From Eledone cirrhosa (lineage: Eukaryota): 64,000 nucleotides of DNA. The notes under the pieces were generated by a model that saw nothing but the letters and a program-made list of their open reading frames with translations, was not told the DNA's origin and did not search any database. The stretch lies in the NCBI GenBank assembly GCA_964016885.1, contig OZ024758.1, forward strand, positions 4,960,001-5,024,000, written 5' to 3'. Positions 5,603 through 61,310 of this stretch are shown piece by piece. The first letter of the stretch is position 1, and each line of letters starts with the position of its first letter. The translations under genes and the position numbers were made by a program.

Positions 5603-7008
<1,406 letters not shown>

Positions 7009-7263
7009 AACAAATTTAATATAGAAATGGCTTCTACCGGACTAGAACTATTTCATTCGAAGGAAATCATCTAGCCTGATGATTTGTTGTATACTCTCTA
7101 CTAATGTAATGAGTACCTTACTTACTGTGGTTACCTCTGATTGAACCCAGGATTCATATATATATATATAACCTGACCAATCTCACCTCCAGTGGGACAA
7201 ACCCGTCTATATATATATATATATTATATATATATAATATATATATATATATAATATATATAT

Positions 7264-15081: not shown

Positions 15082-15113
<32 letters not shown>

Positions 15114-15147
15114 GAAAGATTTGAATGGATACAGTTTAGTTGAAAGG

Positions 15148-15271
15148 AATTTATTGACACGTGTTTCTATAACAGTTACATAACCTAAAACAGCTATCTA
15201 CAAACTTTTAGTTATGCAGACATTCAATATTTCAATGTTATTGTTTACTGTCATTTCATCAGAATAATATT
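15148..15271 (-). ncRNA. Same hammerhead ribozyme, downstream pseudo-LTR of copy 1
   Basis: Reverse complement of 22352-22475. Predicted cleavage after 15156. Confidence 0.75.
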
Positions 15272-15857
15272 ACTGAGGACCTATTTAGTTTTTATAGAGA
15301 ATATTAGGAGGAAGGGGTGAAGTTGTTAGAAGAATAGTTGAAGGAGTGGTTTTTCGATAGCAGTGAGAATTCTTGGTGGCAGTGATTAATTAGATTCCCA
15401 TCTGTTGTTTTGACATTTTTTATAGAATATATTATTGGTTATTTTTCTAAATCTATAGAAGGATTAGAGATAGTAAAGATATGCTTGGTTGGTTTTGTGT
15501 TTGCACTTAACATTCAGACTTAAATTTTTCTTTCAAGTGTACGTATTCTTTCACCCACGCATTCACACACAAATATATTTGCACACCTCTACAAAATACA
15601 TATACTCACAATTCACATATTCATACTTACATATATATACACATGCATACACATATATATACACACATGTATTCCTGTACATACATACGCGCTCATGTGT
15701 GTACATTTTCATACTCAACTTATCTTTATATATACACACGTATAGACACACACATATATACATACATACTCTAGTCCATGTGTACACACATACACATACA
15801 TACACATCCATATACACATACATACATACACACATATATATACATATATACATATAC

Positions 15858-15902
<45 letters not shown>

Positions 15903-15903
15903 C

Positions 15904-15952
<49 letters not shown>

Positions 15953-16221
15953 AGCACTTTAATACATGAATACACTTACATCTAACTATACACATCAAAC
16001 ATATATATATATTTACTTATTTATATACATTTTCACATATATATACATACTTATGGACGTTTTTAGACACATTCATTATCGCATATTTGTACCTATTCTC
16101 ATCAGCATATCTTTTCATTATTAGTATGGTAATTTAAGGTTATTAATATATGTTGAAAAGAGATTGTTTTTATATTTTTCTAACTAGATTAAGGTTTATA
16201 TAGTTGGGGGATGTCCCTCTT

Positions 16222-18543
16222 TTATGTAATATTCGGCTTGTAGTGGGAAAAAAGGGTTTTAGTTCTGTGACGGCAGAATAATGTTCGTTCAATTCTGTTA
16301 TTCAGCAGTTTCTTCTTGTGTGTGATTATGTAATAAATCTCAAGATTACACAATTTGCAGAAATTTTGGCTCCTGGAAAAGCTTTGGGTTTTAGCTAATT
16401 TTTCCCATTTTAGGGTAAACTTTTGATTGCTATCCCTGAGCGTCCAAGCTTTCTCTGCTAAAGTTGTTACATTTCTTTGGCTCTGGTGTTTTATTGAGTA
16501 AGAATGCCTATACAATCGAGATTTAAACGATGTTGCCGTTGATCCCACGTAATACCACTCGTTGCCTCCGGATTTAATGGTACACTTATAAATAATATTT
16601 TTTTCCAGGCAGTTATTGCCGAGGGGGCAGTTGTCAGGATAGGTGCAGTTACAGTTGTGTACGTTGGGTTTTCTCTGGAGTAGTATTGCGGACGAACTTA
16701 GGTGTGGTTTATTTATGTTCTGTAGTGTATTGTCTACTGTTTTTTTGGGGTTCTTTGTACTTAAGTTCTTAGTGTTTTCGTTTAACCTTCTAGTATTGAT
16801 CTTTTTTATGTGTTGTTCAAGGTTTAACGCTGTAGAGTATGACAGTCTTATAGTGGTAGGGTTTAGGATTTTGTGGTATTTGTGTGATGTGGGAAAATGT
16901 CTTTTAATTATTTTAAAGAAGAGTACTGGTAAATTTGTACTAATGGAGCTATTGTATTCGGGGTTATACCATAAGTACTCTTTGCATCGCTTTCTATTAG
17001 TTTTGTTTGTTGGTTTACTGGTGTGCATACTATGGTAGTAAGTGTGGTTTGGTGTTGTGTTATTATATCTACCTATGTGGGATTTATTTTGGGTGTTTTG
17101 ATTGTTCCCATCTATGTACTCTATTTTGTTGAGGTAGCCTGCTTTACTAAGGGCGTTATCGTAGTACTCGGCGTGTTCCTTAAATACTTGTATGTTAGAA
17201 GATAGACCCGAGATTCTAAGGGAAATATTTTTAGGGATAGATTTAATTATAGAGATGGGGTGGTTAGACCCAACATTTACGTATTTGAGATTTTCATTCA
17301 ATTTATGAAACGGTTTAATCAAACCAGAGTTTAAATTGAGTGTGACATCCAGGAAGTTAACTACTTTAAGGTTGTATTCATATGTTATAGTTAGTCCTAT
17401 TTCGAGTAGTAGTTTTCTTATATCTTTGCGTAGTTTTTCTAGTTTTTGGTTATTAAGGTTTTTAGCTAGGAGGAGAACATCGTCGCGGTATATTCCGCCG
17501 TGGAGATTGCTGAATTTTTCCTGGAGTCTAAAGGCGATAAATAACCCCACAATATCAGTTATTTCCGCCGAATCGTTAGAGCCCATTGTTATGTCAAAGT
17601 TAGAGGGTCTATCTTTACGTACCCAATAACTGTTCTCAAATTTGACTATAGTTTTCCTAGCTTCTAATATAATCTTAATTTCATCGTTTGTAAGGTCGGA
17701 GTTATCCTTAGCAAACTTAATGGCTCTATTCAAAGTTTCAGGTGATATCGATGAGTAATATTCATCGATATCAAACTGGATAAACTTAGATTTATTCTTA
17801 TTGCTAATGCTATTAAACCATCTTATTGCTTCTTGGGTCTTCCCCCAGAGTTTAATGTTAACCTTAGCCTTAATTTGGGGGATGATTCTATCTAAGATAT
17901 ATTTGCTTATTTTACCTATATCTGATTTAGAGGGGCAGATTAATCTAATTTTAGGGTCATTATCAAAGTTTACCTTGTGGTCCTTAAGATTGAAAGTGGG
18001 TACCGCCGGTAAGAGTGGTCCTGTCCTATCTTCGATTCCGAGATTTTTCACTATTTCGCATGCCTCATCATTGATGTGCTTAAGGGTTACTTCACTCGTT
18101 TTTCTATATTTTTTATGTAATTCTTTTCGAATGAAGTTGTTGTATGTAGTGCAATCCATAGTGTACAGGTTTGATGTTTTGTCCGCTTTTACTACAATTC
18201 CTTTGGTGTTTTTAAGGTCGTCCAGTAGTTTTTTTATATCTTTCTGTAATTTGCTGTTGGTGTTGCGTCCTTTGAATTTAATTTTAAGGATTAAGTTCAT
18301 AAGGTCCTGCTCAAATGCATCTAATAGTGGGTTGGTGGGTGGGTTTTTACAAGTCCTAAAACCGAATTTTTTGTTTACACCACTTTCTAATGTTGAGTTC
18401 ATACGGCTTCTATCATAGTGGAGCGTTTTCCACCTGACACGTCGAATGAATTCATTAGTTTTTTGAATCATGCTCAATAAATATTCCTTTCTACCTTGGG
18501 TTGGTATGTTTTTGAGTGACATATCCAGGTAGTGTTTTTCCAT
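16222..18543 (-). CDS. Penelope-like element ORF (773 aa): reverse transcriptase plus C-terminal GIY-YIG endonuclease, probably Hydra clade
   Basis: Uninterrupted ORF with ATG in context acaATGG. RT motifs: KADKT, FIQFDIDEYYSSI (A), ITMGSNDSAEITD (B'), GIYRDD (C), VNFLDVTLNL (E). Linker CNCTYPDNC (CxCx5C). GIY-YIG-type NIIYKC...YYVGST...FKSRLYRH, then KW, CKLC..E and LLN...E....CRH. Confidence 0.95.
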   Translation of the reverse strand: MEKHYLDMSLKNIPTQGRKEYLLSMIQKTNEFIRRVRWKTLHYDRSRMNSTLESGVNKKFGFRTCKNPPTNPLLDAFEQDLMNLILKIKFKGRNTNSKLQKDIKKLLDDLKNTKGIVVKADKTSNLYTMDCTTYNNFIRKELHKKYRKTSEVTLKHINDEACEIVKNLGIEDRTGPLLPAVPTFNLKDHKVNFDNDPKIRLICPSKSDIGKISKYILDRIIPQIKAKVNIKLWGKTQEAIRWFNSISNKNKSKFIQFDIDEYYSSISPETLNRAIKFAKDNSDLTNDEIKIILEARKTIVKFENSYWVRKDRPSNFDITMGSNDSAEITDIVGLFIAFRLQEKFSNLHGGIYRDDVLLLAKNLNNQKLEKLRKDIRKLLLEIGLTITYEYNLKVVNFLDVTLNLNSGLIKPFHKLNENLKYVNVGSNHPISIIKSIPKNISLRISGLSSNIQVFKEHAEYYDNALSKAGYLNKIEYIDGNNQNTQNKSHIGRYNNTTPNHTYYHSMHTSKPTNKTNRKRCKEYLWYNPEYNSSISTNLPVLFFKIIKRHFPTSHKYHKILNPTTIRLSYSTALNLEQHIKKINTRRLNENTKNLSTKNPKKTVDNTLQNINKPHLSSSAILLQRKPNVHNCNCTYPDNCPLGNNCLEKNIIYKCTIKSGGNEWYYVGSTATSFKSRLYRHSYSIKHQSQRNVTTLAEKAWTLRDSNQKFTLKWEKLAKTQSFSRSQNFCKLCNLEIYYIITHKKKLLNNRIERTLFCRHRTKTLFSHYKPNIT

Positions 18544-18744
18544 TGTTGTGGTTGCGTTTGCTGTGTGGGTTGCTCGACTTTACAGGAGGTAAATATACAG
18601 TTTTTTCCGTTGTGTTGTAATATAAATATTACACACAGTAGATTATCAGCTCACGTAGAGTTTGCTCGACGGTTCCAGTTGTAGTTCCAAAAGTAATCCG
18701 GAGAAAAATAGAAAGATTTGAATGGATACAGTTTAGTTGAAAGG

Positions 18745-18868
18745 AATTTATTGACACGTGTTTCTATAACAGTTACATAACCTAAAACAGCTATCTACAA
18801 ACTTTTAGTTATGCAGACATTCAATATTTCAATGTTATTGTTTACTGTCATTTCATCAGAATAATATT
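18745..18868 (-). ncRNA. Same hammerhead ribozyme, upstream pseudo-LTR of copy 1
   Basis: Direct repeat of 15148-15271. Predicted cleavage after 18753, about 210 nt upstream of the ATG. Confidence 0.75.
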
Positions 18869-19454
18869 ACTGAGGACCTATTTAGTTTTTATAGAGAATA
18901 TTAGGAGGAAGGGGTGAAGTTGTTAGAAGAATAGTTGAAGGAGTGGTTTTTCGATAGCAGTGAGAATTCTTGGTGGCAGTGATTAATTAGATTCCCATCT
19001 GTTGTTTTGACATTTTTTATAGAATATATTATTGGTTATTTTTCTAAATCTATAGAAGGATTAGAGATAGTAAAGATATGCTTGGTTGGTTTTGTGTTTG
19101 CACTTAACATTCAGACTTAAATTTTTCTTTCAAGTGTACGTATTCTTTCACCCACGCATTCACACACAAATATATTTGCACACCTCTACAAAATACATAT
19201 ACTCACAATTCACATATTCATACTTACATATATATACACATGCATACACATATATATACACACATGTATTCCTGTACATACATACGCGCTCATGTGTGTA
19301 CATTTTCATACTCAACTTATCTTTATATATACACACGTATAGACACACACATATATACATACATACTCTAGTCCATGTGTACACACATACACATACATAC
19401 ACATCCATATACACATACATACATACACACATATATATACATATATACATATAC

Positions 19455-19501
<47 letters not shown>

Positions 19502-19513
19502 CATATATACACA

Positions 19514-21401
19514 ATATAGAAAAACGAGTGAAGTAACCCTTAAGCACATCAATGATGAGGCATGCGAAATAGTGAAAAATCTCGGAATCGAAGATAGGAC
19601 AGGACCACTCTTACCGGCGGTACCCACTTTCAATCTTAAGGACCACAAGGTAAACTTTGATAATGACCCTAAAATTAGATTAATCTGCCCCTCTAAATCA
19701 GATATAGGTAAAATAAGCAAATATATCTTAGATAGAATCATCCCCCAAATTAAGGCTAAGGTTAACATTAAACTCTGGGGGAAGACCCAAGAAGCAATAA
19801 GATGGTTTAATAGCATTAGCAATAAGAATAAATCTAAGTTTATCCAGTTTGATATCGATGAATATTACTCATCGATATCACCTGAAACTTTGAATAGAGC
19901 CATTAAGTTTGCTAAGGATAACTCCGACCTTACAAACGATGAAATTAAGATTATATTAGAAGCTAGGAAAACTATAGTCAAATTTGAGAACAGTTATTGG
20001 GTACGTAAAGATAGACCCTCTAACTTTGACATAACAATGGGCTCTAACGATTCGGCGGAAATAACTGATATTGTGGGGTTATTTATCGCCTTTAGACTCC
20101 AGGAAAAATTCAGCAATCTCCACGGCGGAATATACCGCGACGATGTTCTCCTCCTAGCTAAAAACCTTAATAACCAAAAACTAGAAAAACTACGCAAAGA
20201 TATAAGAAAACTACTACTCGAAATAGGACTAACTATAACATATGAATACAACCTTAAAGTAGTTAACTTCCTGGATGTCACACTCAATTTAAACTCTGGT
20301 TTGATTAAACCGTTTCATAAATTGAATGAAAATCTCAAATACGTAAATGTTGGGTCTAACCACCCCATCTCTATAATTAAATCTATCCCTAAAAATATTT
20401 CCCTTAGAATCTCGGGTCTATCTTCTAACATACAAGTATTTAAGGAACACGCCGAGTACTACGATAACGCCCTTAGTAAAGCAGGCTACCTCAACAAAAT
20501 AGAGTACATAGATGGGAACAATCAAAACACCCAAAATAAATCCCACATAGGTAGATATAATAACACAACACCAAACCACACTTACTACCATAGTATGCAC
20601 ACCAGTAAACCAACAAACAAAACTAATAGAAAGCGATGCAAAGAGTACTTATGGTATAACCCCGAATACAATAGCTCCATTAGTACAAATTTACCAGTAC
20701 TCTTCTTTAAAATAATTAAAAGACATTTTCCCACATCACACAAATACCACAAAATCCTAAACCCTACCACTATAAGACTGTCATACTCTACAGCGTTAAA
20801 CCTTGAACAACACATAAAAAAGATCAATACTAGAAGGTTAAACGAAAACACTAAGAACTTAAGTACAAAGAACCCCAAAAAAACAGTAGACAATACACTA
20901 CAGAACATAAATAAACCACACCTAAGTTCGTCCGCAATACTACTCCAGAGAAAACCCAACGTACACAACTGTAACTGCACCTATCCTGACAACTGCCCCC
21001 TCGGCAATAACTGCCTGGAAAAAAATATTATTTATAAGTGTACCATTAAATCCGGAGGCAACGAGTGGTATTACGTGGGATCAACGGCAACATCGTTTAA
21101 ATCTCGATTGTATAGGCATTCTTACTCAATAAAACACCAGAGCCAAAGAAATGTAACAACTTTAGCAGAGAAAGCTTGGACGCTCAGGGATAGCAATCAA
21201 AAGTTTACCCTAAAATGGGAAAAATTAGCTAAAACCCAAAGCTTTTCCAGGAGCCAAAATTTCTGCAAATTGTGTAATCTTGAGATTTATTACATAATCA
21301 CACACAAGAAGAAACTGCTGAATAACAGAATTGAACGAACATTATTCTGCCGTCACAGAACTAAAACCCTTTTTTCCCACTACAAGCCGAATATTACATA
21401 A
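19514..21401 (+). pseudogene. 5'-truncated RT/GIY-YIG ORF of the inverted PLE copy
   Basis: Lacks roughly the first 145 codons, including KADKT. The remainder is identical to 16222-18543. Confidence 0.85.
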
Positions 21402-21720
21402 AAGAGGGACATCCCCCAACTATATAAACCTTAATCTAGTTAGAAAAATATAAAAACAATCTCTTTTCAACATATATTAATAACCTTAAATTACCATACT
21501 AATAATGAAAAGATATGCTGATGAGAATAGGTACAAATATGCGATAATGAATGTGTCTAAAAACGTCCATAAGTATGTATATATATGTGAAAATGTATAT
21601 AAATAAGTAAATATATATATATGTTTGATGTGTATAGTTAGATGTAAGTGTATTCATGTATTAAAGTGCTTATATATATATATATATGTGTATGTGTGTG
21701 TGTATATGTGTGTATATATG

Positions 21721-21765
<45 letters not shown>

Positions 21766-22351
21766 GTATATGTATATATGTATATATATGTGTGTATGTA
21801 TGTATGTGTATATGGATGTGTATGTATGTGTATGTGTGTACACATGGACTAGAGTATGTATGTATATATGTGTGTGTCTATACGTGTGTATATATAAAGA
21901 TAAGTTGAGTATGAAAATGTACACACATGAGCGCGTATGTATGTACAGGAATACATGTGTGTATATATATGTGTATGCATGTGTATATATATGTAAGTAT
22001 GAATATGTGAATTGTGAGTATATGTATTTTGTAGAGGTGTGCAAATATATTTGTGTGTGAATGCGTGGGTGAAAGAATACGTACACTTGAAAGAAAAATT
22101 TAAGTCTGAATGTTAAGTGCAAACACAAAACCAACCAAGCATATCTTTACTATCTCTAATCCTTCTATAGATTTAGAAAAATAACCAATAATATATTCTA
22201 TAAAAAATGTCAAAACAACAGATGGGAATCTAATTAATCACTGCCACCAAGAATTCTCACTGCTATCGAAAAACCACTCCTTCAACTATTCTTCTAACAA
22301 CTTCACCCCTTCCTCCTAATATTCTCTATAAAAACTAAATAGGTCCTCAGT

Positions 22352-22475
22352 AATATTATTCTGATGAAATGACAGTAAACAATAACATTGAAATATTGAA
22401 TGTCTGCATAACTAAAAGTTTGTAGATAGCTGTTTTAGGTTATGTAACTGTTATAGAAACACGTGTCAATAAATT
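22352..22475 (+). ncRNA. Type I hammerhead ribozyme with extended, branched stem II (PLE 3' pseudo-LTR)
   Basis: ttatt-CTGATGA(22361-67)-a-atgacagt...actgttat-a-GAAA(22456-59)-cacgtg-TC-aataa. Stem I is ttatt/aataa, the stem II base is 8 bp, and stem III is the palindrome ACACGTGT. Folded by eye. Confidence 0.75.
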
Positions 22476-22627
22476 CCTTTCAACTAAACTGTATCCATTC
22501 AAATCTTTCTATTTTTCTCCGGATTACTTTTGGAACTACAACTGGAACCGTCGAGCAAACTCTACGTGAGCTGATAATCTACTGTGTGTAATATTTATAT
22601 TACAACACAACGGAAAAAACTGTATAT

Positions 22628-23021
<394 letters not shown>

Positions 23022-26383: not shown

Positions 26384-27589
26384 ATAATCAATTTTACCTC
26401 CCACGCTACGATATTATTTCCTTTTATTCCATGTTATATGACTAAGTATTTGAGAAACTAATAGATTCTAGAATATATAAATAAATAAAAAAATTTGTTT
26501 AGGAAAAAAAAAATGAATGAAACATATTCAGCGTTCCCACATAGTGAAAAATTCTAGATAATTCCGTATATCCGCATAAAGTCGATTATATAATTCAGTA
26601 AAACCTTTTTGAATTGGAGAAATTGCAAGGAAAATGTTTAAATGTTAATTTCCGAATAGAAATATGTTCACACCAACGAAAGTTTTCAATTTTGGCTGAA
26701 ATTGGTAAAGATGGATTCGAGATTCTCATTTTCGGAAATTTACTATTCCACACCTATGGAAATGATTTTCAACACTTCCGAACAACCAAACAAGTAATAA
26801 TAATTGTTTCAACTTTTGGCACAAGGCCAGCAATTAACCAGTGTATTACTGGTACTTTATTTTATCGACCCCGTAAGGATGAAAGGCAAAGTTAACCTCG
26901 GCGGGATTTTAACTCAGAATGGTAATGGCCGTAACTCTATGCGTCAAAGCATGGCGTCCGACTCTCTATCGATACTGCCAATCCACCGCCCCAAAAAGTA
27001 ATAATAATAATGATAAATGAGAGACAGGGGTTACAATGTTACATAGCCTTCTAGAAATAGCAATCAAATCTCCCTCTAATCACGCCTCTTGTATCTTGTA
27101 TGGTCCTGTAAATCCTAATTGTCATAGGGGCGCCGTATTGACATACGTTTCTTGGGCATTTTAAGCTTGGCGAAGTCCATCCCTTTCTAGATCTGAGTAC
27201 AGCAGATTTTTTTCTTCCAGAGAGAGGAACAATCGACCCCAGTACTGGACTGGTACTTTCTTTTATCGACCATCATCATGTAATAAGTCAGAACATGTCC
27301 AACTTCTCTGATGGAAGTTTCCAGCAGCATAAGCTTTATTCCTATTGGTGATTTTCATTTCTTTTATATGGGAGACAAATTGCTTGGAATGTTTATGTTT
27401 TCGTTAATAACTAAAGCATGCCATATTAATTTTCTACTTAATATTTATTCAAATTCTGTTGTTTCAGTCGTAAAATTTATTCTTCTAATTTTCGCATCCA
27501 ACTCGTTGTTTCCGCCTCATTGTGCTTCATTAGTAAAAACTAAGATAAATTAATGTTAACATATTAAATACAGGAGTCAATAAAAAAAC

Positions 27590-30913: not shown

Positions 30914-32730
30914 GCTTCTTACTTAGAATTCATCATTTGTCATATGCAATATTTTTAGGAAATTTCACACAGAAGATTCTAACTTTAATCTCCATATATT
31001 TTCATTTTGTTAAAGTAATTTTGTATATGTTGTAAACTTTCATAGAAATTATTCACTGAAATCTTTTCCCCAATATCGGAACTATTGAAAAGTGTTAGAG
31101 TAGTGAAAGCAGAGGTCTAGACAGAATGATTTTAAGTATTTAGTTACAAGCTTTTAGACGTTTAGTTAAAATTAATATTTATGTCCATCATTGTACAGGT
31201 TGATTACATAAAGTAAAATGTTTGATCTCACATCCTACTTAATCTGCCATACGAGGTTCAGCAGAAAAGTTCATAGGCTGACTATGAAGGAGTGATGCTA
31301 GAGCTGTGAAATCTTGCATGCATTAATTTCAACTCTTCTTATTAATAACTGCATTGTTTCTTTCCATAGACTATGTTGAAAAATAAACCTCATTTGGTCA
31401 TTCCATGAGAGTATCTTGGTCAACCTATGAAGGAGTGATGCTAGAGCTGTGAAATCGTGCTTGCATTAATTTCAGCTCTTCTTATTAATAACTGCATTGT
31501 TTTTTTCTAGGGACTTTCCTCCCTATACTGTTCTTTTTTAGCATTCCGTAGATCCTATATGTTTTATAAAACCATGGCACTTCTTCTTCTTCTTCTTCTT
31601 CTCATTTAAACTAAAGCAATATATCAAAGAAAAGAAAGTGAACAAAAATACTTCATTCTAAAATTAAATCAATTTATTAAAACAAAACTCTAAATTGGAA
31701 GCCATTGACCCCGAGAATAACATCTGACTGGTCGGATTATAAGTTACCCCCCTCCATTCTTCACTAGTCTCATTAATCATAGTGTGTATTTATTTATATA
31801 TTTATATATTTGTGTCTGTTACATTGCCCTCAATATATTCTATATTTATTTGAGAATTAATTCAGTGTTTGTCAGTCAAGTTAGCGAATTATTCTCTATT
31901 GAAAACATGGTGCCATCCTTTCGAAGGTTGTCTTGGTTAGGTTAGATAAAATTCAGCTATAATCAGACCATTGTTCGAAAGCAATGGCGGCCCCCTTTGC
32001 GACGCCATGTTTAAAACCATTGAGTAATGTTGTTTGAAGATATTTCAAAACATTGTATAGCACTTTATCTGTATTTTTCACCTAGGGACTTTACAAATTT
32101 ATTCTATATATTCTATATATTCTATATATTACTCACGTTTATAACGGAACAAACGGTAAATCTCCCGGTTTTCCAATAAGAAAGCTTTCATTACATCGAA
32201 ATAACAACCTTTTGATTTCAAATACACATTAGACGCCAAAACGCAAGTAAATTATAGATAAAGACCCGATTTAATATCTTTAAAACATATTTTCACGTTG
32301 CTTAGTGCAACTTTCCAAGTTTAAGGTGTACAGTAAATGAACCTGGACAGATATGGGGGAATTGTTTTAAAGGATATATATATATATATATATATATAGG
32401 GGGCGGACGACCAAAGCAAAAGCACCTTTTTTAGTCCGCTCCCTTCCAAATAAAATTGCCTCAGAAATGTTACCTTTTAATCAATGTTTGCTGTCTGAAG
32501 AGATCACGATGTTTATCGTCATTGAAATATTTATAACGGCTCAAATAATAAAAGACTCCACATGATGCCTTTGACACTAATAACAATTATGTACCCTAAA
32601 TGTTCTAAAGGACTAGGATTTTAGTTACATGTTTCGACATTCCTTATGCTCCGATGATCCCAGACTTCCCTCTGGAAGAAACAATTGTCAGAAAATGTTC
32701 TAAAGTAAAATTTGATCGTTTTAACACTTT

Positions 32731-35045: not shown

Positions 35046-35050
<5 letters not shown>

Positions 35051-35535
35051 ATATTAAATAAATGAAAACTATATTTCTAAAACCATATTTATTCTATTAT
35101 ATATATTTCAAGGGTACCAAAAACTTTGGTACGCTTTCCTTTGGTAAGTTTTCCTTGCTTAGTCACTATCCAAGGAAAACTTGAACCGTTAAGGTATGTT
35201 CCTTGGCTATGTCAAAATTTATAAAACACACTTTGTATTTTATCTGATGAAAGCGTACCAAAGTTTTTGGTACCCTTGAAATATATATAATAGAATAAAT
35301 ATGGTTTTATAAATATATTGTTATACTTTGGGAGGGTCATGTTGCCAATAAGAAACACACGCACCAGTTGCTTTCACTTCAATTTATTATTATAAATTTA
35401 TAAATTTAGGAATTTAGTTTCCATTTATTTAATATCATTGAATATTATACTGCAGAAAAGCTGTCGAGTGCTCTGAATCAGTTATAAACATTTATATTTG
35501 TTGAATTACCAACAAATTGAATATCCCTTCTGCTT
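35046..35535. mobile_element. Non-coding PLE pseudo-LTR remnant (family A) with an inverted partial copy, within (TA)n
   Basis: 35046-35138 is the reverse complement of 35247-35318 plus 35415-35440. It contains a hammerhead and is homologous to 56499-56875, 61005-61310 and 48060-48190. Confidence 0.7.
35236..35297 (+). ncRNA. Type I hammerhead ribozyme, family A
   Basis: tattttat-CTGATGA-aagcgtaccaaagtttttggtaccctt-GAAA-tatata-TA-atagaata: 8-bp stem I, long stem II, palindromic stem III. Confidence 0.85.
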
Positions 35536-36821: not shown

Positions 36822-37205
36822 GGGAGTGGGGGTGCTGAAACGTTTCGGGCTTTGGGTAAAAGAAAATACAGGAGAATCAGTTGATTATAAATTAATTCAA
36901 CATATTCCCCTCTCAGATTGTAGCGGTCCTACCCCCCCCCCTGTAAATATAACAGCTCTATCCTTTCACGATACACTTGATTATATATATATATATATAT
37001 ATATAGGACCGAGTAGGACCCCGACGGCTGAGCTCAAGCCGTTTCGACGGCTAATTCTGGACTAATTTAGTCTAGAATTAGCCGTCGAAACGGCTTGAGC
37101 TCCCCCGTCGGGGTCCTACTCGTTCCTATTACCCACTCTACTACCCTAAGTATTGAGTACTTTGGTGCATTATGGTCCATCTGGTTCCTTACCACATTTC
37201 CTTCG

Positions 37206-37277
<72 letters not shown>

Positions 37278-37991
37278 GTTAAACAAGATTGAATGAGTAC
37301 ACCAAAGAATAAGTTTTACAGTAGATTGGAAGCACTCTACAAAAAATTATTTTCCAGAGTTATTAATATTAAGATATAAATATTAATAAAATAGATGTTC
37401 TTTTGATCAATTAAATGTTATTATACATATTTCAGAGGTACAACAGTACGTCCTCATCAGACAAAATATAATGATACATGACATACCCTGAGATGTTAAA
37501 TATATATATATATATATGTGTGTGTGTCTGTGTCTGTGTGTGTTATAGTTTGCTTGAAGCATTGTATATAGCATATAACGTTGAAAGAGATAGATGGCTA
37601 AACAATGCAAAATGGACTGTTAGATGAGGTAACGAAAAGTAAAAGTTACCTGGTAATCTTCATCTTCTTCTTCTTCTTCTTCTCCTTCTATCTGTCCAAT
37701 ATTGTTGGACCTAAAAGTCCCTGCATCAGGGTTTAAGGGACCTTCAGTGGATAACGTTCCAATTTCCTTTGGGATAAAATTTTGATTTTTATTTAAGATG
37801 TACAGTCCGACAAGGTCGCTAACCAAGGACTTCCTAATGATTTCTCCCCAATGAAAACAGTTCTAGTCCTGTGGAAGCCATTTTATATTAAATATTTGTA
37901 CTTTGAGTATCTTATACTATTGAGTACTTTACTTGCTGTGGTTACCCCCGATTGAACCCGGGATAAACATTATACGTATATATATATATAA

Positions 37992-38596: not shown

Positions 38597-39229
38597 TATA
38601 TTAGTATACATTTTACCTGTTCAAAGACCTGAATCAAATAAAAGCTAATATATTTGCTAGTGTCAGACGAACGGAAGATGACGAAACTCTATAAACAACA
38701 GATTTTCCTTCACATCTCCATCATAAACAACTTTACATCCGGACAAGTTTGCAGCTCAACAATTCTCTGACTTTATTCCATATTGGCTTTCATCTCTTTT
38801 ATTTCTTTCATCTTTTCACTTTTCTTTCTATCTTTTCTATGAAGGCGCGTGGCTTAGTGGTTAGAGCATTGGGCTTGCAATCGAAAGATTGTGAGTTCGA
38901 TTCTCGGACCGGGTGATGTGTTGTGTCCTTCAGCAAGACACTTTATTTCACGTTGCTCCAGTTTACTCAGCTGTAGAAATGAGTTGCGGTCCTGCCAAAT
39001 CAATGGATGGCAGTAGTTCCATTACTCGAAAGACTGGTGTAGTGCTTCTGAGAACAATGCGGCTTTGCAGGTGATCAATACAAATTGACAATGGAAAGGG
39101 GCTCCCGCTCGAGTTAGAAGAGAACTATTGACCTTCAGGAGAACCAGTGACCCCTGATTGTATTCAGCGACCGAAAAAAATATGAAGTACACCAAATCCA
39201 ATGCTCCTAGGGGCGGCTCTGGTTCTTCT

Positions 39230-45621: not shown

Positions 45622-45857
45622 CTCTCTGTATATATATATATATATATATATATAAACGGAGAGAGAATAACAAAATTATACTTTAAACATAATTATATAT
45701 TATCATATATTGGTAAACTCCAATGTAACCATATATATATATATATATATACATATATTCTTATATATTATGTATACTCCAGTCCTACAAACAGTAGAGT
45801 GCTTCTTATCCGATATCTGCATTGCTTTATTGTACTACAATAAAACTCACCTCCTAC

Positions 45858-45908
<51 letters not shown>

Positions 45909-46285
45909 CATATATACATATATATATACATATATATATATACATATATATATATATATGAAATATATGAAATATATGAAATATATGAAATATATGAAAT
46001 ATAAGAATCAAAGAACTGTTCAAAACATAATGTTTTGAACAGTTCTTTGATTCTTATATTTCATATAACTGCTCTGTAAATCATCTGATGTTTTTACATT
46101 GAGCTACTTAACTTACTGGTAATAAGGTAGTAATACATTACTGCCTACCACTATTTAGGGTGTGTGTAAAATACTTACAACTGCTTAAGGTTTTGTGTTT
46201 ACATAACCATAAATAGTATAACTAATACTATATATATATATATATATACATATATATGTATATATATATATACATATATATATAC

Positions 46286-47787: not shown

Positions 47788-47792
<5 letters not shown>

Positions 47793-48045
47793 GGAGGTGA
47801 GTTTTATTGTAGTACAATAAAGCAATGCAGATATCGGATAAGAAGCACTCTACAGTTTGTAGGACTGGAGTATACATAATATATAAGAACAAAAGATGGT
47901 TAAAGGAGTTCCATGTATTTTATTATGCGCATTTCAAAAACAAACATCATCATGCAATAATATTTGTGTTTTCATCAGATAAAACAGGAAGACATGATAT
48001 GAAGGTTAAAAAACACTTGTGGATAGTGCAGTTTTAAATCAACAC
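47788..48045 (-). mobile_element. Family B pseudo-LTR remnant (hammerhead plus terminus ...aaaactcacctcctaca), within (TA)n
   Basis: The terminus recurs at 45755-45860 (+) and 59071-59112 (-). The hammerhead part recurs at 59430-59595 (+). Confidence 0.7.
47916..47986 (-). ncRNA. Type I hammerhead ribozyme, family B
   Basis: Minus strand: tgttttat-CTGATGA-aaacacaaatattat(tgcatg)atgatgtttgttttt-GAAA-tgcgca-TA-ataaaata. Confidence 0.82.
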
Positions 48046-48191
48046 ATATATATATATATATGCAGAGGTTATATTTAATTTGTTGGGATTCAACAAGCTT
48101 AAACATTTTTATAACTGATATAAAATTGAAATATATATAATAAAATAAATATGGTTTTATAAATATAGTTTCAATTTATTAATATATTGTT

Positions 48192-55848: not shown

Positions 55849-56543
55849 TAATGATGTTCCCTCATTAGCAGATTTGAACTCATCATTATAAACGTCAGTA
55901 AAACCTGTTAGTATTACAGTACAGCTACAAGCTACATAACAGCTACTTCACGTATTGTATTGATCTGAATTCTAAAGAAATCTTCTAATCTTGTTCCTTG
56001 TTTTACATCAACCTTTCTATTTTTCACATCATAAATTGCATGAAATATTTGTATTTTTGAGATCAATAATGTTTAATATTGGTTGACTTTTCTCCCATGA
56101 CTACAAAAAAAAAAAAAAATAGAAGAAAGAAACGCCTTATTTTACTGCTTGGATTTATTTATTTATTTATTTATTTATTTGTTTTGCCGCTATGATTTTG
56201 AAACAAAGAAGAGAACGACTAAGAATCTGGTTATCATAAAAATCACTTTTGTTAACATTTTATTTTGGATATAACAACGTAGTTACTATTAGAATCTTTT
56301 TTCATTTTATAAAATATATTTCTTGTACATCACACACACACACATGCACACACACGCACGCACGCGCGCACAAGGGGTGACTTGGGAGAGTTGTTAAGCA
56401 AAATATTTATACTCTGCTATGTCTTGAGTACCTTACTTTATGTGGTTACTCCCGATTGAACCCGGGATAAACTTATATATATATATATATATATATAATC
56501 AATGATATTAAATAAATGGAAACTATATTTATAAAACCATATT

Positions 56544-56606
56544 TATTTTATTATATATATTTCAAGGGTAACAAGACACATTGGTACGCTTTCATCAGAT
56601 AAAATA
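56544..56606 (-). ncRNA. Type I hammerhead ribozyme, family A (inverted twin of 56685-56747)
   Basis: Reverse-complement copy with one substitution in stem II. Confidence 0.82.
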
Positions 56607-56684
56607 CAAAGTTTGTTTTATAGAGACATAACCATGAAAATAATACCTTATCGGTTGGATATTCACTGGATAAAACAAACTTTG

Positions 56685-56747
56685 TATTTTATCTGATGAA
56701 AGCGTACCAATGTGTCTTGGTACCCTTGAAATATATATAATAAAATA
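56685..56747 (+). ncRNA. Type I hammerhead ribozyme, family A
   Basis: tattttat-CTGATGA-aagcgtaccaa(tgtgtc)ttggtaccctt-GAAA-tatata-TA-ataaaata, with a perfect stem I. Confidence 0.88.
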
Positions 56748-56872
56748 AATATGGTTTTATAAATATAGTTTCCATTTATTTAATATCATTGAATATTTAC
56801 TCCAGTAACTTGTTGAGTGCTATAAATCAGTTATAAACATTTATATTTGTCGGACTTCCAACAAATTAAATA

Positions 56873-56925
<53 letters not shown>

Positions 56926-58474: not shown

Positions 58475-59488
58475 AGTTAGCAGGGGAATGCAACACGTGA
58501 GAACAATACAATGCAATGATTATATATATTAGTTTAACGCTTGATGTAGATAGAGAGTTAGAGAAAGAGACAAAATGAGAGAGAATGATGGATATATAAT
58601 GATAGATAATTGACAGGAACCGAAGGAGAGACATGGTAGGATAAGAAATATAAAAAAAATGACTACTTTTATTTTATGTCATACAAAGATGATTAATTTG
58701 AATGTGTATGTAAAATCAAGAAAATGGATATTTGTTAAAGTAGCAAAAACATGTCTACTCAAAATATAATCTCTGTAAGAAAGGTTAAGTCAAGTGTGAA
58801 CTTTTATTTTCTCTGTTTGTTTCAAATATGTTCTCTCATGACATACAAATATGGAAAGGGAAATCAGTGGCTGCGCTGAGACAGGTAGAAGAAAAGCGGA
58901 TTATAGAGTTCTGATAGGAGGGTGTTTGATTTGACAATATACCCATTTTTTTCTAATTTAAATTTTAGTTATTTAAAATAAATGTCCATCTCAAGAGAAG
59001 CGTTGATTGTGTCAATCTTTCTTTTAATGCAAATCTAGTATATATATACATATATATATATGTGTGTGTGTGTAGGAGGTGAGTTTTATTGTAGTACAAT
59101 AAAGCAATGCAAATACAAACCTTAATTTAATACTATTCTTAATTCCTTTTTCTTCATGCATAAACCTCATTAACTTTTAATTTCAAAATCTTTTAAATTA
59201 TCTATTATCTTCCAACGGCTTTTTAATTTCTCTCTGTGAGACAATATTTTTCTCAGTTGTAAAGGCTATCTCTCTCTCTATCACCCATTTCTCCTCCTCT
59301 CTCATCCTTCCTTCTTATACTCCTCCCCCACCATCCTTTACTCTTATTTCTTCCTCTTCCTTACCTTTTCCACCACCACCCCCATCACTTTTTCCCAATC
59401 TCATACATCCATCTTAATTTATTTTTCATATGTTGATTTAAAACTTCACTTCTCACAAGTGTTTTTTAAGCTTCATATCATGTCTCCC

Positions 59489-59559
59489 TATTTTATCTGA
59501 TGAGAACGCAGATATCATCCCATGATGATATTTGTTTTTGAAATGCGCATAATAAAATA
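59489..59559 (+). ncRNA. Type I hammerhead ribozyme, family B
   Basis: tattttat-CTGATGA-gaacgcagatatcatc(ccat)gatgatatttgttttt-GAAA-tgcgca-TA-ataaaata. Its differences from the 47.9-kb copy preserve stem II pairing. Confidence 0.85.
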
Positions 59560-59594
59560 CTTGGAACTCTTTTAACCATCTTTTGATCTTATAT

Positions 59595-61004: not shown

Positions 61005-61008
<4 letters not shown>

Positions 61009-61305
61009 ATATTAATAAATAGAAACTATATTTATAAAACCATATTTATAAAACCATATTTATTTTATTATACATATTTCAAGGGCAACCAAAGAAAATT
61101 ATGGTGCGCTTTCATCAGATAAAATACAGATTTGTTTTATAAATAAATATTGACATACCCGGAAAAAAAGACAACCTTAACGGTTGGAGCTTCCTGGATA
61201 GGGGAGATAGTACATTTATTGAGGGTGATACAAAGTTATGTGTACTTTATATCAGTTATAACAATTTTAAAGCTTGTTGAATCCCAACAAATTAAATATA
61301 ACCTC

Positions 61306-61310
<5 letters not shown>
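61005..61310. mobile_element. Family A pseudo-LTR remnant (inverted hammerhead arm plus 3' terminus)
   Basis: Homologous to the 35-kb and 56.5-kb elements and bounded by (TA)n. Confidence 0.65.
61061..61126 (-). ncRNA. Type I hammerhead ribozyme, family A variant
   Basis: Minus strand: tattttat-CTGATGA-aagcgcacca(taattttctt)tggttgccctt-GAAA-tatgta-TA-ataaaata. Confidence 0.8.

Follow-up and report, generated by a model that had tools for sequence, protein, structure and literature searches.

Head-to-head copies of a Hydra-clade Penelope-like element in Eledone cirrhosa: a case for twin priming at two hairpin-marked sites

How does a Penelope-like element (PLE) come to lie in a chromosome as two copies that face away from each other, one longer and one shorter than a unit, with a tail at one end only? 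Craig et al. 2021 (PMC8557442) pose the formation of tandem and inverted PLE insertions and of the "tail" as an open question. It is raised again by a 64,000-nucleotide stretch of Eledone cirrhosa DNA (contig OZ024758.1, positions 4,960,001 to 5,024,000; hereafter the window), in which positions 15111-22627 hold two head-to-head (5' to 5') copies of one intact Hydra-clade PLE inside (TA)n. Altogether, our analysis favors a model, which we hold to be reasonably probable, whereby this structure arose in a single recent insertion, through twin target-primed reverse transcription from two fixed, hairpin-defined internal sites within one ribonucleoprotein. For PLEs such a layout is ordinary, and the same arrangement, with an inverted 5'-truncated copy and a tail of 30-40 nt at one end, is described in the legend to Fig. 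2 of Craig et al. 2021 (PMC8557442). An RNA motif at a fixed distance from the start sites, together with an intact and recently active open reading frame (ORF), makes the question of PLE tandems, inversions and tails directly testable, and the focal locus is the most discriminating case for the mechanism.

The unit measures 3597 nt, and the two copies, of 4403 nt (1.224 units) and 3115 nt (0.866 units), have the lengths of 1.22 and 0.87 units given in the original prediction, which was made from the letters of this DNA alone. Their 3.0-kb arms (15111-18110 and 19513-22512) are reverse complements with 99.97% identity and a single mismatch (15931/21692) within the internal microsatellite. That substitution had been seen before; what had been missed is a second difference, namely that a run in the upstream pseudo-long terminal repeat (pLTR) reads (TA)15 and its counterparts in both 3' copies read (TA)14. 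Copy 1 contains 482 nt that are absent from copy 2, and 115 nt of copy 2 reach beyond the outer end of copy 1, so that neither arm can be a simple fold-back of the other. The centre of the locus is an asymmetric spacer of 1402 nt with a junction that is not palindromic, and the outer flanks share 38% identity and show no mirror image; the unmirrored flanks and the central spacer make a fold-back read artefact unlikely. The locus has the features expected of an endonuclease-containing (EN+) PLE, with a pLTR derived from a partial tandem, an inverted 5'-truncated copy and a one-sided tail, and no other copy of the family was found elsewhere in the window. Its parts are as follows.

15090..15113, no strand: left (TA)n target tract, the last 3 nt of which (15111-15113) are microhomology with the element
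15111..19513, minus strand: copy 1, 1.22 units, consisting of the upstream pLTR, a full unit and a short 3' end at +42-45
15151..15267, minus strand: 3' hammerhead-like motif of copy 1, called by descriptor, predicted cut after 15156
15563..15952, minus strand: internal TA/TG microsatellite in the 3' untranslated region (UTR), containing the sole arm mismatch at 15931 and the (TA)14 run
16222..18543, minus strand: intact ORF of 773 amino acids, with reverse transcriptase (RT) motifs FDID at 257, TMGS at 319 and YRDD at 352, a CxCx5C linker at 631 and, from 649, a GIY-YIG-type nuclease at the C-terminus
18570..18588, minus strand: hairpin motif 2 (CTC at +165), which follows the long end's last unambiguous base by 9 nt
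18593..18707, minus strand: the 115-nt "tail" as it stands in the inner copy, between both start sites
18662..18703, minus strand: hairpin motif 1 (CTC at +50), which follows the short end's last unambiguous base by 7 nt
18708..19513, minus strand: upstream pLTR (about 805 nt), truncated within the microsatellite, with the (TA)15 run
18748..18864, minus strand: inner hammerhead-like motif, predicted cut after 18753, read through without a seam
19508..19518, no strand: head-to-head junction, sharing 1 nt strictly, or some 5-6 nt with a 1-nt gap, no palindrome
19513..22627, plus strand: copy 2, 0.87 units, with a 5' truncation at codon 145 and a long 3' end at +155-160
22356..22472, plus strand: hammerhead-like motif of copy 2, predicted cut after 22467
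22513..22627, plus strand: one-sided 115-nt tail of copy 2, including hairpin motif 1 (22517-22558)
22623..23021, no strand: right (TA)n tract with TCTT interruptions, the first 5 nt microhomology; a target duplication is unreadable inside the repeat

The 3' ends can be placed relative to a hammerhead-like ribozyme motif in the pLTR. An Rfam search, at gathering and at E-value thresholds, returned no ribozyme at the locus; the call was made with a hand descriptor and by comparison with the Hydra hammerheads of File S2 of Craig et al. 2021, and a strict scan missed other hammerheads that a relaxed scan recovered. The descriptor CUGAUGA...GAAA...GUC fits all three pLTR copies (matches at 22361, 18859 and 15262), so that each carries the motif by this measure, with cleavage as a prediction; in copy 2, CUGAUGA lies at 22361 and GAAA at 22456. 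Stem I has 5 bp, stem II has 8 bp above an A.A mismatch, a mismatch at the stem II base being common among the hammerheads of File S2 (PMC8557442), and stem III is palindromic and loopless, with a duplex between two copies predicted at -10.3 kcal/mol. Ribozymes with this type of stem III are described as needing two copies and cleaving poorly (PMC4209133, among others). The predicted cut site is crossed seamlessly in all three passes, and the template must have been unbroken or seamlessly joined over the interval that begins 760 nt ahead of the inner cut and ends 45 nt beyond the outer one.

Measured from the predicted cut, the ends lie at 45 and 160 nt including microhomology and at 42 and 155 nt without it, in agreement with the distances first proposed. 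As had also been observed, both enter (TA)n through microhomology, of 3 nt at one end and 5 nt at the other, and a pair of this kind would arise at random positions with a probability of about 0.004-0.008. The accompanying idea, that priming simply picks TA-like spots, is not supported: none of the unit's longest TA runs, which lie in the 3' UTR and measure 29, 17 and 12 nt, serves as an end, and of the seven TA runs in the 210 nt after the cut only two are used, exactly those that precede a hairpin motif. This motif, repeated directly downstream of each end at a fixed distance, had been overlooked. It contains a 9-mer, found at +83 and +175, that in each case closes a CTC...(2-nt bulge)GAG hairpin, and each focal CTC hairpin begins 4 nt after the microhomology. 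Ends of published Hydra consensus sequences are likewise bimodal past the cut, with 10 of 24 at +30-48, 2 between, 11 at +88-153 and 1 beyond.

Relatives of the element allow the motif to be followed further. One genome-contig scan gave 14 related loci (L001-L014), five of them from one assembly. All 14 lie on contigs filed under bacterial genomes or bins and encode relatives of an animal-type PLE protein; judging by their PLE and microsatellite content, they are probably host (animal) DNA in bacterial bins. Fifteen motif copies were compared, 2 of them focal and 13 taken from relatives; in the first three pairs of the upper stem, 38 of 45 cells hold a pair, a count reached in none of 20000 shuffles (the first pair having been selected on). 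MAFFT did not register hairpins of variable length, and the pair counts come from anchored copies and from a subset of 8 rows. In that subset five of the eight pairs show two-sided changes, and the score of 0.464 is reached by 0/500 shuffles, with slid controls at or below 0.116. A covariance model built from eight relatives (R1) recovers held-out copies in L004, L006, L007, L008 and L010, the best with an E-value of 2e-5 and five with only 0.09-0.6. By eye, the motif is present in four of six consensus sequences of File S7 of Craig et al. 2021, twice before the ORF in Hydra-1_Ajap; the canonical form was not seen by eye in the Hydra-1_Obim consensus of that file.

In all 14 resolvable ends, from 8 families, 7-9 nt separate the last unambiguous base from CTC; 12 of these end positions were entered by hand, and the count excludes the ambiguous ends at L010 4773 and window 59594, both ends of 2669-2807 and ends without a continuing copy. 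Among 13 head-to-head insertions, 8 in the window (3 of them without a recognisable ribozyme) and 5 in L002 and L010, 11 pair one short with one long end (P=0.011 against an independent 50:50 choice); the pair 59072/59594, whose spacer is unrelated DNA, was left out, and hammerheads of L002, L010 and L011 that lack a Hydra ORF link and the motif were not used. At L010 10781-11536 the long end has no clean (TA)n run. L006 and window 45758-45857 extend from the short site, or a point near it, to the long site, as would follow if the long-site cDNA met a short site already occupied.

We suggest the following course of events. The RNA would have exceeded one unit, most likely by linear read-through at a tandem source locus, and would have stayed uncut at its dimer-type hammerheads. 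The RT-GIY-YIG protein, probably paired, would bind two bulged hairpins downstream of the ribozyme, at the spacing found here, and both strands of the (TA)n tract would be cut, as two-strand cutting is known from the PAc element. The freed 3' ends could then pair with UA-rich bases 5' of a hairpin, the top strand at +45 and the bottom strand at +160. In agreement with this, each outer junction, on its own strand, reads 5'-(TA)n-antisense element, so that the strand geometry fits the earlier proposal of priming from both target strands, a proposal also helped by the inability of a fold-back from copy 2 to supply the 482 nt. Both cDNAs would run toward the RNA 5' end, over 4.4 and 3.1 kb with a 3.0-kb overlap, which would mean that the trailing cDNA displaces the leading one or that two RNAs were used. 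Joining of the cDNA 3' ends by microhomology, followed by filling in, would yield the head-to-head layout with its one-sided tail.

More tentatively, and with a greater chance of being wrong than right, the duplicated covarying hairpin may be a protein-binding anchor that assigns the two cut strands to two sites on one RNA. Such an anchor, if real, would explain at once the tail, the head-to-head layout and the alignment with (TA)n. Telomerase-like addition of repeats where copying starts may be a further consequence, for which the end at 45991 offers a comparison, its first 9 templated bases being present five times against once. There, a small head-to-head insertion (45946-46229) has 9 nt once in its long arm at the start site and five times in tandem at its short end, followed by (TA)n; the array, a single case and the only one of its kind in the window, may stem from telomerase-like reiterated copying during initiation or from slippage at a later time. 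Paired start sites anchored by hairpins are plausibly a new mechanistic detail. The main text of Craig et al. 2021 (PMC8557442) contains neither "hairpin" nor "stem-loop" nor a short/long pairing, and literature searches, with most subscription papers beyond their reach, gave no description of the hairpin or of the pairing. Two-site initiation, the uncleaved template, two-strand extension and the circle idea are mostly published in parts.

Several observations weigh against twin priming at hairpin-defined sites. The focal hairpins are the weakest examples of the motif: motif 1 lies outside the minimum free energy fold, with a pair probability of 0.016, motif 2 reaches -0.4 kcal/mol with a pair probability of 0.14, and the covariance model R1 finds neither. 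The hairpin descriptor was composed after the data had been seen, and UA-rich bases are conserved at the same spot, which confounds homology with structure; microhomology alone could set the ends without the hairpin acting. Long-site ends make up only 2 of the 14 measured, 2 of the 13 head-to-head insertions have equal ends, and fold-back accounts just as well for several small insertions, which are near-perfect palindromes. Finally, the PAc start site is reported to be non-homologous to the cut DNA, with no difference between top and bottom strands (PMC11167929).

One alternative concerns how the template was made. Twin priming on a covalently closed monomer circle, produced by hammerhead cleavage and ligation as in the model proposed in PMC4209133, would yield a copy 1 longer than a unit and the three seamless passes through the cut site. 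On a circle, however, both microsatellite passes would copy the same bases, yet they read (TA)15 and (TA)14, a weak argument since one slip suffices; moreover, the ribozyme is of the poorly cleaving dimer type, and for PAc no RNA reads ending at the cut were reported and ribozyme mutants still inserted (PMC11167929). We regard the circle as quite unlikely here and favor a linear uncleaved multimer, given the PAc data and, as a weak further argument, the (TA)15/(TA)14 pattern. The original prediction had left the choice between circular and uncleaved multimeric RNA open; its initiation past an uncleaved ribozyme stands, a circular RNA is not required by any feature here, and the two TA runs lean slightly toward a linear template. 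It had also called such cDNA hard to derive from a cleaved linear monomer, which is weaker than stated, as a cleaved monomer copied with end-to-end template jumps could serve too. Such jumps, or two independent RNA-protein complexes, together with priming at any short UA run that pairs with the target and an incidental hairpin, make up a further explanation, to which we give little credence. It is consistent with both ends lying on alternating TA runs, with the weakness of the focal hairpins and with the position of the motif in the 5' UTR, where it could be, for example, a promoter or translation element. An incidental hairpin is hard to reconcile with the 7-9 nt spacing in 14 of 14 ends, with the short and long pairing in 11 of 13 insertions and with the disuse of the longer TA runs, given that the two of seven runs used both stand before the motif.

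A single priming event followed by cDNA snap-back, with the second end placed by (TA)n microhomology with the conserved UA-rich spot, is unlikely in our view, even though the window and a related locus hold near-perfect palindromes (37003-37129, 45991-46067, 56492-56799 and L002 11656-11872), self-priming was proposed for palindromic junctions of rotifer PLEs by Arkhipova 2013 (PMC3846280), and the 5-6 nt of gapped homology at the focal junction would permit it. A fold-back from copy 2 has no source for the 482 nt unique to copy 1, a fold-back from copy 1 could acquire +46 to +160 only through an additional switch from one pLTR to the other, and the junction is non-palindromic with a spacer of 1402 nt. 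That the structure is an assembly or read fold-back artefact would fit arms of 99.97% identity and flanks that are both microsatellites, which are hard to assemble; we think this very improbable, as the flanks are unmirrored (38%), the spacer is asymmetric, the ends fall at different element-specific positions, and the same layout recurs in the window and in other assemblies. Of these accounts, the shortest is twin priming at a pair of fixed sites.

Further remnants lie in the window and in related loci. Four are head-to-head remnants, in the window, of another PLE family (56498-56874, 35046-35534, 48062-48191 and 61005-61308), with a hammerhead recognisable in three and in each case one end at about +52-54 and the other at +135-144; a variant hairpin occurs in 56498-56874 and a degenerate variant in 35046-35534. 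Remnants of two further hammerhead families ending at (TA)n lie at 47790-48040, 45758-45857, 59072-59115, 59435-59594 and 37273-37500, and 45758-45857 comprises just the interval between short and long sites, flanked by two TA runs. Related GC-richer palindromes without a recognisable ribozyme are found at 37003-37207, which has short and long ends and is the top match of the hairpin model (E-value 7e-4), and at 2669-2807, which has equal ends. Related short pieces ending at (TA)n (7010-7160, 37900-37970 and 56400-56470) are likely long-end fragments of a further family, and the piece at 7086 scores as a hairpin motif. Hammerheads of other families (L002 12706-12885, L010 3283-3360 and 7148-7226, L011 2061-2142) have their (TA)n end just after a shared TGTGCAA and, without a linked Hydra ORF, perhaps represent a different PLE clade with its own start signal. 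The repeats at 26795-27011 and 31264-31515 are abundant and dispersed (22 and 29 BLAST pieces in 64 kb) and probably resemble short interspersed elements (SINEs), and 38848-38911 is a tRNA-like SINE head. Within the focal locus, the antisense pLTR and the truncated ORF share a reading frame across the junction; the resulting stop-free frame of 775 codons (19074-21398, plus strand), with no ATG before 20037, is probably due to chance. A read-through transcript of 15111-22512 would fold into a 3-kb hairpin, through which the focal copy may trigger silencing of its own family. Template slippage was considered for the TCTT interruptions of the right flank and dropped, similar interruptions being present at the end of the array 5605-7009.

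The protein places the element among EN+ PLEs, with a single ORF containing a telomerase-like RT fused to a GIY-YIG nuclease. Its AlphaFold model (mean pLDDT 84.9) has telomerase reverse transcriptases (TERTs) as top Foldseek matches (E-value 5e-9). In the nuclease, the core IIY..YVG is present, R676, H680, E735 and N748 are invariant across 33 sequences, and the core agrees by eye with the Hydra rows of Fig. S7 (PMC8557442). Searches of Pfam (nuclease included) and of PDB sequences with the 773-residue protein gave no match, and the exact protein is absent from a collection of 15 billion entries. A homolog search retained 260 of 7485 candidates; the best 120 of these 260 are 31-41% identical, and the named relatives include an octopod and a bryozoan protein at 34-36%. 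RWK at 37 and ADKT at 120 are carried by 110 and 111 of the best 120 homologs, respectively, DKG by none. CxxC at 729 and CxH at 757 flank the catalytic E and N, CCHH is absent, and one Cys lies between the GIY and YIG halves. RWK, DKT in place of DKG, the CxCx5C linker, CxxC with CxH, the lack of CCHH and insertion into (TA)n are all traits of the Hydra clade, and a (TA)n target is described for almost all Hydra families (PMC8557442). The unit of 3597 nt is longer than the <3 kb described for the clade, a length that is a tendency and not a criterion (PMC8557442). By its motifs and the by-eye comparison, the element classifies as a new Hydra-clade family with a long tail. Membership in Naiad/Chlamys was rejected, the nuclease being C-terminal instead of N-terminal before the RT, as was Neptune/Nematis, given a linker that is CxCx5C and not CX2-5CxxC and a nuclease without CCHH.

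Among known systems, Hydra-clade elements (PMC8557442) come closest, with the shared protein motifs, the (TA)n target, a hammerhead near the 3' end, and a partial tandem with an inverted 5'-truncated copy, as for Penelope-13_HM in File S1. The focal element differs from them in its unit of 3.6 kb with an internal microsatellite, in a ribozyme stem II arm of about 85 nt and in a closest protein, among the matches listed, that is only 36-41% identical; its tail of 110-118 nt compares with the 30-40 nt quoted for PLEs (PMC8557442). Circular templates were proposed by Cervera & de la Pena 2014 (PMC4209133), and the PLEs and retrozymes covered by that model (PMC4209133; bioRxiv 10.64898/2026.07.22.740005) share the type I hammerhead, a palindromic stem III per pLTR and copies longer than a unit. 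Support for two start sites comes from the Poseidon element PAc of Anolis, in which RT initiates internally at two positions downstream of the ribozyme, RNA is used unprocessed in vitro, the target is AT-rich, both strands are cut and extended, the tail is the interval between the start sites, and a dimer is predicted (Frangieh 2024; PMC11167929). PAc belongs to a different clade, its sites are about 30-40 nt apart, inside the ORF and reported as non-homologous to the target, and its description leaves later insertion steps unvalidated and, in the text available, does not link the two sites to head-to-head insertions (PMC11167929). The focal sites, in contrast, are 115 nt apart, lie in the 5' UTR and show 3-5 nt of microhomology.

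In twin priming of L1, reportedly described by Ostertag & Kazazian in 2001, two target strands prime on the element RNA and leave a head-to-head junction with microhomology. L1 twin priming yields two essentially non-overlapping segments, one with poly(A), from a second site that is opportunistic, whereas the focal insertion has a 3.0-kb overlap of its arms, two fixed sites and no poly(A).

Telomerase RT has its closest relatives in the RTs of PLEs, and telomerase uses a template bounded by RNA structure, with alignment of the primer. The likeness here extends from the TERTs among the top Foldseek matches to the short primer-template pairing beside a conserved hairpin. Unlike in telomerase, the focal hairpin is 3' of the template start and does not bound the template 5' end, copying runs over kilobases, and the primers are made by a nuclease. 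A structure-anchored template start with primer alignment, if true, would bear on the origins of telomerase.

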